Assembly (NCBI GenBank): GCA_050124795.1
Contig: JASFEO010000018.1
Location: 1-15,785 of the forward strand
Length of the DNA stretch: 15,785 nucleotides
Direction: 5' to 3'
Origin: Candidatus Pacearchaeota archaeon
GTDB lineage: Archaea; Nanobdellota; Nanobdellia; Pacearchaeales; GW2011-AR1
The notes under the pieces are model-generated. The model was not told the origin of the DNA. It searched no databases and was given only the letters and a program-made list of their open reading frames with translations. Shown piece by piece: positions 342 to 8,832 of this stretch. Position 1 is the first letter of the stretch; each line of letters opens with the position of its first letter. Made by a program: the position numbers and the translations under genes.

Positions 342-343
342 AT

Positions 344-399
344 ATGGACCTAGGAGTTCATCAAACACAAAATCCTAGGAATTAGTCCAACATAACGAC
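344..399 (-). repeat. Short version of the tRNA-Ala-linked element
   Basis: 382..399 matches 286..303 at 15/18; contains GTGTTTGA (T-loop-like); ends AGGTCCAT like tRNA-Ala. Confidence 0.6.
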
Positions 400-4027: not shown

Positions 4028-4083
4028 ATTCGCTTCGCTCTCGGCAAAGCCGAATACAAAACCCTATCTGAAGCTGTTTTGCA
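4028..4083 (-). other. Hairpins downstream of the tRNA-Val-linked element
   Basis: TCGGC-TTT-GCCGA and TGCAAAAC...GTTTTGTA on the minus strand. Confidence 0.4.
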
Positions 4084-4084
4084 T

Positions 4085-4190
4085 AATGGTCCATATCCCC
4101 CAAGCCTGCACGCAACTTTATGGGTTATTGTTACTACCACAGACTTGCTCGGAATTGAAGGAACATCTTATAGTGTCTAGTCCTATATCC
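4085..4190 (-). ncRNA. Candidate structured ncRNA / tRNA-linked element, tRNA-Val copy
   Basis: Same motifs and helix as 174..303; ends in TATGGACCA (4087..4095), which equals the tRNA-Val 3' end (4228..4236). Confidence 0.65.
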
Positions 4191-4227
4191 TCTACAAATA
4201 AATAATCTTGCTCTGTAATATTATAAG

Positions 4228-4299
4228 TGGTCCATAGAGGAATTGAACCTCTGTCTACTCGGTGTAAACGAGTCGTCTTAGCCATTGGACTAATGGACC
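4228..4299 (-). tRNA. tRNA-Val(UAC)
   Basis: Cloverleaf GGTCCAT/ATGGACC-A, ACTCG-TT TAC AC-CGAGT, AGAGG-TTCAATT-CCTCT. Confidence 0.97.
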
Positions 4300-8586: not shown

Positions 8587-8590
8587 GTGA

Positions 8591-8731
8591 TCCCCCCACC
8601 AAGATTCGAACTTGGGATCTCCCGGGTGCTGCTTGCAACCGAACTGGCTTTTAGGGTTTCATAGTTATCATGATTGAATCTCCACCTTAGTAATCTACAG
8701 CCAGGCGCTCTAACCACTGAGCTATGGAGGG
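8591..8731 (-). tRNA. tRNA-Tyr(GUA) with a 68-nt intron at 37/38 (8627..8694)
   Basis: C1:G72 acceptor CCCTCCA/TGGGGGG-A; CCTGG-CT GTA G|intron|C-CCGGG; BHB central helix CUGU/GCAG. Confidence 0.93.
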
Positions 8732-8832
8732 ATTATATAAACTAAATTTCTATCTTTTTAAGATTTGCCATTTCCCAAAAAACATATTCTCAATCTCAAC
8801 AATCTTTAAATACAATAAATATCCAATAAAAA

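Follow-up and report, generated by a model that had tools for sequence, protein, structure and literature searches.

Archaeal introns of the bulge-helix-bulge (BHB) type are recognized through the motif hBHBh′, in which two 3-nt bulges are separated by a 4-bp helix. They are cut by the splicing endonuclease and joined by RtcB, and the excised intron is often circular. Intron "transposition" among tRNA genes was reportedly described for the Thermoproteales by Fujishima et al. in 2010. BHB introns also occur in protein-coding genes such as cbf5 (PMC2738675), and the arrival of archaeal tRNA introns at new sites is still called open in a 2026 preprint (10.64898/2026.10.13.758758). Transfer RNA genes can also be disrupted by integrating mobile elements, for which Sugahara et al. 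2012 (PMC3293823) describe an element of 1.8 kb that encodes a recombinase.

Here we describe a segment behind a tRNA-Val gene which, with a probability of about 0.55, represents a previously undescribed family of mobile elements, small and intron-like, of Pacearchaeota-type DPANN archaea and is sited in a spare downstream copy of a gene end. Published work on BHB introns in DPANN archaea, on tRNA intron transposition and on Pacearchaeota introns, in the parts of it that were accessible, does not describe the element. We slightly favor regarding it as a new family of intron-like mobile elements akin to archaeal BHB introns. Like these introns, the element is short and protein-free, occupies the 37/38 site in tRNA-Gln with a 4-bp helix to nucleotides 32 to 35 and a 3-nt 3′ bulge, and has related copies at other tRNA positions and in protein genes. 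Unlike them, it has a conserved internal fold and a sequence common to more than 100 copies, its 5′ bulge measures 5 to 7 nt, the majority of its copies are found outside genes or within duplicated, spare gene ends, the intragenic copies are in frame and stop-free, and its splicing is predicted. As in tRNA-gene disruption by pNOB8/SSV-type integration, leftover or duplicated tRNA fragments lie beside an intact tRNA and are tied to a mobile element and to intron gain; compared with the element of PMC3293823, however, the whole unit here spans only about 84 to 250 nt and has no associated gene.

The copies behind tRNA-Val and tRNA-Ala

The window, that is, the whole stretch of DNA analyzed, is an entire contig of 15.8 kb from a genome of 1.06 Mb with 32% G+C. 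Its minus strand carries an intact tRNA-Val(TAC) gene (4228-4299; ARAGORN; Rfam tRNA model, 65.9 bits). The last 9 nt of this gene, TATGGACCA (4228-4236), occur a second time at 4087-4095, 132 nt behind tRNA-Val, in agreement with the initial annotation, which had described here the second copy of an element that ends like tRNA-Val. Between the two, on the same strand, the inserted block begins with a 5′ spacer (4184-4227) that includes an AT-rich stretch with a T-run at 4195-4206. It is followed by the conserved 5′ motif of the long ("B") subfamily, GGACTAGACACTATAAGATG (4164-4183), delimited by alignment with 10 other copies of the same genome and already placed here by the initial annotation. 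Comparison with the cognate tRNA identified the next stretch, TTCCTTCAATTCC (4151-4163), as a 5′ pseudo-exon that copies the T-loop of tRNA-Val and the first part of the 3′ strand of its T-stem. The invariant two-helix core of 58 nt (4094-4151), defined by alignment and covariation and scoring 61.1 bits with model R1, comes next. It comprises GAG, helix P2 (4141-4147/4101-4107), GTGGTA (4135-4140), helix P3 (4130-4134/4112-4116) with its loop (4117-4129), GTGC (4108-4111), GGGG (4097-4100) and ATA (4094-4096). P2 is exactly the helix that the initial annotation had proposed. The tail, or 3′ pseudo-exon (4083-4095; 13/14 match), consists of TATGGACCA followed by TTAT, which is tRNA-trailer-like.

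The element has no family in Rfam 15, where the whole window yielded only tRNA and 16S rRNA at gathering scores; at E values up to 10, the only match within 4085-4190 was a chance match to permuted tmRNA (9.7 bits). Among contigs assembled from RNA sequencing runs, those on the window covered 16S rRNA only.

Within the spacer, TAGAGGATAT (4185-4194) is complementary to the T-stem 3′ strand of tRNA-Val. An antisense T-arm copy in the 5′ spacer was also seen by eye at Lys, Ser-TGA, Asp and Glu, and was dropped as a general feature. Over 11 loci the spacer antisense signal had no significance (cognate mean of 12.2 versus 10.5 ± 2.9), and the cognate tRNA ranked first in 2/11.

A further copy of the element lies on the minus strand behind tRNA-Ala(TGC) (434-505; ARAGORN and Rfam), downstream of the 16S rRNA. 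This copy (174-292; model score, 68 bits) comprises a 5′ motif (271-292), a 5′ pseudo-exon (259-270), a core (186-259) and the tail GGCAGGTCCATT (174-185). The tail is identical to 432-443 at 12/12 positions, which bears out the earlier claim that the Ala copy ends like tRNA-Ala. By eye, a degenerate first unit (342-388, minus strand) was recognized behind tRNA-Ala, with a second 5′ motif (378-388), a tail-like CTAGGTCCATAT (342-353) and no recognizable core.

Two side observations concern other parts of the window. In the rRNA region (1-433 and 1221-2660), the 16S rRNA is followed by tRNA-Ala, and the 433 nt to the contig end contain no 23S rRNA; the spacer behind tRNA-Ala (1-433) holds two element units in its place. 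At 8589-8732 on the minus strand, ARAGORN with introns allowed returned a tRNA-Asp with a 68-nt intron, which was absent from the default run and from Rfam.

The layout common to the copies is Y GAG, P2 (7 bp), GTGGTA, P3 (about 5 bp, with a loop of 10 to 50 nt), GTGC, P2′, (G/C)GAG, NNN and tail. The constant part is a strand-specific fold of 57 to 86 nt with the internal loop GUGGUA/GUGC, starting with GAG and ending with (G/C)GAG-NN, and its borders to the host sequence are sharp (...Y|GAG...NN|N...). Across 17 copies of the same genome, the P2 and P3 cells were 95.6% paired, and 10 of the 12 pairs had changed on both sides; the covariation score was reached in 0 of 500 shuffles, and slid controls were 32 to 49% paired. 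For 87 copies from about 30 genera, in an alignment that is fitted to the model and so biased toward structure, pairing was 93.4%, 11/12 pairs had double changes, and slid controls reached at most 53%. U-G pairs are frequent (57/86 at one pair), which indicates that the fold is selected on the strand of the element, as RNA or as single-stranded DNA. Single-sequence folding of pre-tRNA-Gln returned neither P2 nor P3, so both helices rest on covariation. Two further pairings considered by eye, a D-arm-like hairpin (CUUC-GUGGUA-GAAG) and a pseudoknot linking the tail to the P3 loop, were dropped, as neither covaried. Readings of the element as C/D-box or H/ACA RNA, k-turn, hammerhead, RNase P or 5S RNA were dropped on motif grounds.

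Two subfamilies can be distinguished. Subfamily A (Gly, Arg-TCG, Leu) begins right behind the tRNA with GAUGAGAACC-n-GGUUCGAYGAG. Subfamily B (Val, Ala and nine others) has a 5′ part of 50 to 100 nt, in which a locus-specific hairpin and a T-run precede the conserved motif GCTAAACTCAAGAACGATT, with a T-loop-like stretch behind it.

Host genes of the family

ARAGORN predicts 36 tRNAs in the genome. Within 400 nt downstream, the 3′ end of 7 of them recurs exactly over at least 9 nt, compared with 0/36 upstream, so these tail repeats exceed chance. A profile built from six copies and iterated was run over the 1.06-Mb genome with nhmmer (E < 1e-10) and returned 19 copies of the element, 15 of them directly 3′ of a tRNA gene and on the same strand. 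These follow the tRNAs Leu-TAA, Ile-GAT, Ser-GCT, Ala, Pro-TGG, Cys, Lys-TTT, Ser-TGA, Asp, Glu-CTC, Val, Gly-TCC, Arg-TCG, a second Leu and, in truncated form, Arg-CCT. The other four lie in the intron of tRNA-Gln(CTG) (one copy), in reverse-transcriptase genes on contig C2 (two copies) and as an orphan on contig C23. An additional truncated copy was found behind tRNA-Lys(CTT), and a tRNA-Thr locus that was also inspected lacks the core. The upstream tRNA is intact at every tRNA-linked copy, which rules out a split or permuted tRNA gene.

The initial annotation had the terminal sequence vary with the local tRNA and the scaffold stay constant. This extends to 14 further loci, where between 8/9 and 21/21 positions of the tail are identical to the cognate tRNA; the match often runs 1 to 7 nt into the trailer and never includes CCA. 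Ranked against all 11 tRNAs with B-type copies, the cognate tRNA comes first for 8 of the 11 tails. Four of the 14 tails are exact, and mismatches in the acceptor strand occur in those of Asp (14/17), Pro (10/12) and Ser-TGA (17/21). The 14 nt before GAG resemble the T-loop and T-stem of the cognate tRNA, which ranks third or better in 9/11. As the tail and the stretch before GAG are both cognate-like, the core lies inside a second partial copy of the tRNA, which begins at the T-arm and extends beyond the 3′ end by a few nucleotides. On this comparison, what had been called the terminal sequence is the 3′ pseudo-exon of a putative spare copy, covering tRNA positions ~57-66 to 73 and 1 to 7 trailer nucleotides. 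In the T-loop copies, the 4 nt after P2′ are CGAA, CGAG or TGAG and can pair with the T-loop UUCG (by eye). None of 96 cores scanned interrupts the sole copy of a T-arm. Their removal in silico gave a tRNA across the junction only at the two tRNA-Gln(CTG) loci; the tRNAs that host the Val and Ala copies need no such removal to be intact.

In tRNA-Gln(CUG) the core is located at 37/38, the canonical intron site, in three genera, the locus of this genome being G000:C3:77486-77621 and the third locus L114. The anticodon stems of these hosts differ and covary, and nucleotides 32 to 35 (CUCU), which pair with GGAG of the core, are constant. A 3-nt bulge lies ahead of nucleotide 38, and the 5′ bulge is 7 nt. 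Because the pairing of GGAG with 32-35 gives a BHB-like motif at the canonical site, the core in tRNA-Gln(CUG) is presumably spliced through this motif. In-silico removal of the core restores a tRNA at tRNA-Gln, as removal of a BHB intron would. Compared by eye with hBHBh′, the 3′ half of the motif is as expected (P2′, 4 nt, 3 nt, exon helix), and the central helix is CUCU/GGAG in Gln and UUCG/CGAR in the T-loop copies. Departures from hBHBh′ are the 5′ bulge of 5 to 7 nt instead of 3 and, in the B subfamily (Val, Ala), at most 3 of the 4 central pairs. The only splicing endonuclease gene found in the genome (G000:C11:19984-20238) is a single gene encoding 176 amino acids, which by its size we take to be of the single-unit type. 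Single-unit splicing endonucleases have strict specificity. The irregular 5′ side of the motif and an endonuclease of this type count against the intron-like reading.

The same arrangement was observed at a protein gene. In six genera, a HerA/FtsK-like ATPase gene has a core immediately past its stop codon, and, as at the tRNAs, the intact gene end is followed by a spacer and by a second, incomplete gene end that the core interrupts. An 8- to 9-nt copy of the WHG codons precedes the core, and a second copy of the last 13 codons follows it. Removal of GAG...NN, with the 5′ cut after Y and the 3′ cut before the third N, joins the pseudo-exons in frame as (A/H)WHGG-EAPT...stop in 4/6 genera; the reading is partly restored in the fifth, and a stop codon falls at the joint in the sixth. 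This in-frame joining shows that the unit is an exon-intron-exon structure with exact borders. Both copies have 13 codons to the stop in 5/6 genera, and of 75 codon pairs compared between them, 34 are identical, 30 synonymous and 11 nonsynonymous. This synonymous bias possibly means that the second copy is used, or that the two copies are diverged donor and recipient alleles. By hand count, the second copy of genome G021 matches the G158 allele at 30/39 nt, versus 25/39 for its own first copy, which favors horizontal transfer.

Five clear intragenic copies, in a topoisomerase-like gene, an MGMT-like gene and three others, measure 57, 60, 60, 66 and 81 nt under the same border rule. All five inserts have a length that is a multiple of 3 and contain no stop codons, which suggests that these copies are translated rather than spliced. 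Read-through would have to be tolerated, and splicing in protein genes would therefore be absent or incomplete.

Two of the host genes on C2 showed a further feature. The (TC)13 in-frame insert in the reverse-transcriptase genes (G000:C2:1152-1238 and 38171-38255; locus L012:1172-1256) is a copy of the element in which the TC run forms the loop of P3. One of the two genes reads through in frame, and the Pfam match of the other is split at the insert. In many relatives, the match to the reverse-transcriptase domain breaks near model position 105-113, usually with no large insert, at the same spot where the core lies in the reverse transcriptase of this genome. In two other genera (L041, G043:C14; L100, G102:C18), the core directly adjoins the final codons of a small zinc-ribbon gene (...CPxCGSKIF.KPR...), whose stop codon lies inside the first helix of the core.

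Spread among genomes and candidate partner enzymes

Model R1 matched 10 of 101 relatives, with 9/60 in the same family and 0/40 in eight other families. Across the family, 32/151 genera were positive with 1 to 32 copies each, and no copy was found in 119/151. A strict core pattern run over 185,579 species returned 38 loci, 36 in DPANN archaea and 2 in bacteria; the bacterial matches are probably due to chance, since their gap is the longest allowed. By record title the DPANN carriers are Pacearchaeota, Nanoarchaeota or Woesearchaeota. In this unbiased sample, 9/36 copies follow a tRNA, and one copy is the Gln intron. Genome G102 has tRNA-linked shadows at Glu, Gly, Ser (two in tandem), Lys, Met and Leu, and such shadows also occur in several other genera. 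Tandem units were observed at tRNA-Ser of G102, at the HerA-like gene of G106 and at tRNA-Ala in the window.

The comparison of filled and empty sites that the initial annotation had called for showed that tRNA-Val of 11 other genera has an ordinary trailer and no element. In a metagenome contig (L048), the 3′ two-thirds of tRNA-Val (656-729) are identical to those in the window and are directly followed by TTATGCAAA, the flank that follows the Val tail in the window, so that this tRNA-Val looks like an empty site. The 9 trailer nucleotides of the L048 gene are also identical, and its 5′ part differs and pairs poorly in the acceptor stem. Such a mosaic tRNA-Val suggests recombination inside tRNA genes between related archaea.

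The patchiness, the bursts in some genomes, the truncated copies and the tandem units suggest that the element is mobile. The initial proposal of a non-autonomous element integrating at tRNA 3′ ends thus held in part: the element looks mobile and is tied to a target duplication. Its specificity for tRNAs did not hold, given the copies in the Gln intron, in frame in protein genes, behind the HerA-like gene and between genes. Neither is there a plain att site or target-site duplication flanking the element, as the duplicate is a second partial T-arm and acceptor strand with the core within it. The co-occurring integrase, reverse-transcriptase or nuclease gene that had been suggested was not found in consistent association.

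Searches for partner enzymes included reverse transcriptase, which was present in 4/10 element-positive versus 28/91 element-negative relatives (genomes 77 to 91% complete) and in only 1/5 other high-copy genomes, and was not found in G102, which has 25 copies. Dependence on reverse transcriptase as a rule was rejected on these co-occurrence counts. TnpB gave 0 matches over the cutoff in 5 genomes. Y1 transposase was found in only 2/5 genomes, and the IS200-like ends in contigs C26 and C27 are unrelated to the core. Tyrosine recombinase/integrase genes exist in the genome, none of them adjacent to a copy, and the strict core pattern, which misses diverged copies, had 0 matches in viral contigs.

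Like MITEs, REP/RAYT repeats and SINEs, the element occurs in tens of copies, is patchy over genera and non-coding, and has burst in some genomes. It differs from them in having no terminal inverted repeats, no fixed target-site duplication and no partner transposase or reverse transcriptase that could be found, in its RNA-type fold with G-U pairs on one strand, and in the duplication of the target 3′ end in exon-intron-exon register. A MITE or other DNA transposon was rejected, as the unit ends carry no terminal repeats, the duplications range from 9 to more than 35 nt without a fixed length, and there is no partner transposase. The omega-RNAs of TnpB/IscB and the bridge RNAs of IS110 likewise carry, behind a constant scaffold, a sequence that the insertion site determines. 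In contrast with these RNAs, the element has no TnpB, the ends of the IS200-type genes are unrelated to it, and its tail reads in the sense of the target and belongs to a gene end that has been duplicated.

Possible origins of the spare gene ends

At its indispensable targets, the tRNA T-arm and the HerA-like C terminus, the core occurs only in the arrangement of intact end, spacer and split second end. An entering unit would consist of 3′ exon, spacer, 5′ pseudo-exon and core, and would enter by a crossover within the 3′ exon, either Campbell-like, possibly from a small circle, or through unequal exchange. Such a crossover would leave the gene intact, would make tandem units possible and would allow the unit to move between related genomes. 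We infer this recombination route because the layout, the tandem units and the trailer-inclusive duplications fit it; the route leaves unexplained how the pseudo-exons are re-made for each new tRNA target.

The duplicated ends might instead be functional. An RNA that supplies an alternative acceptor strand, as put forward in the initial annotation, may exist, although several tails are decayed. The core would then be a handle for endonuclease and ligase, which would cut and rejoin the transcript and put the downstream tail in place of the native 3′ end. The tRNA acceptor strand or protein C terminus could be reached by a second route in this way, and both copies would be selected. This agrees with the exact register and in-frame joining at the HerA-like gene in four genera, the preserved length and predominantly synonymous changes of its second copies, the T-arm of the right length restored in several tRNA copies (by eye), and the four exact tRNA tails. 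However, the mismatched Asp, Pro and Ser-TGA tails would yield defective tRNAs, several spliced shadows have a T-arm of the wrong length (by eye), the closeness of the second G021 copy to the G158 allele fits donor-recipient divergence after horizontal transfer, and most genera lack the element, so that we consider such a function unlikely. More speculative still, the core could be the handle of an RNA-based mobile intron that travels with a spare host 3′ exon. Splicing endonuclease and ligase would excise native 3′ exon, spacer, 5′ pseudo-exon and core as a circle, the gene body would be joined to the downstream tail so that both exon copies are used, and the element would spread among genes and genomes as this circle. 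If true, this would be alternative splicing in an archaeon, for tRNAs and an mRNA alike.

Other origins are less probable again. The strand-specific RNA-type fold, the duplications of variable length (9 to 21 nt and longer), the tandem units and the presence of reverse-transcriptase genes that themselves carry the core would suit a SINE-like retroelement, in which a reverse transcriptase supplied in trans, for example that of the diversity-generating retroelement of this genome, copies either the core RNA or a pre-tRNA or mRNA that contains the core, and the cDNA is inserted at a gene end with a variable target duplication. The co-occurrence counts given above, including the 25-copy genome in which no reverse transcriptase was found, speak against it, as do duplications that contain trailer DNA and no CCA, and we regard this origin as improbable. 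Integrase-driven plasmids and viruses in tRNA genes characteristically leave direct repeats of tRNA 3′ ends, and the genome encodes tyrosine recombinases; the copies could then be attL/attR remnants of such elements, later deleted, with a conserved arm left beside the duplicate of the tRNA end. An att site of this kind was rejected and its remnants appear very improbable, as the block between the repeats is just 84 to 250 nt without a gene, the core lies within the second repeat and not beside it, no integrase is adjacent, viral contigs gave no strict-pattern match, and the same core also occupies a tRNA intron, in-frame positions within protein genes and a site behind a protein gene. Least probable of all is a host cis-acting RNA signal, a processing or termination module of tRNA operons co-evolving with each tRNA. 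The same strand and fixed distance class behind tRNAs and the T-runs and hairpins between tRNA and element would be expected of it, but the element was not found in most genera of the family, is missing behind tRNA-Val in 11 other genera, also lies within open reading frames, and is decayed and truncated at Arg-CCT and Lys-CTT.

Under the reading that we prefer, a mobile, intron-like element in a spare gene end, the family is recognizable by sequence and fold, varies between genera, and is found in several states side by side: as the canonical intron of a tRNA, in spare T-arm copies, in frame in protein genes and, in exact exon-intron-exon register, behind a protein gene. These states, together with the variation between genera, make intron gain, tolerance and spread directly testable. 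For the annotation of DPANN genomes, the element accounts for pseudo-tRNA ends, "in-frame inserts" and apparently split reverse-transcriptase genes.

A composite form was also observed in G102 (L096, L098, L099 and L085). In it, a partial copy of the core's 5′ end precedes about 60 conserved nt, which end in ...GGTTAGGAGT, and a full core comes last. Its recurrence at several loci indicates a subfamily and not independent nested insertions.
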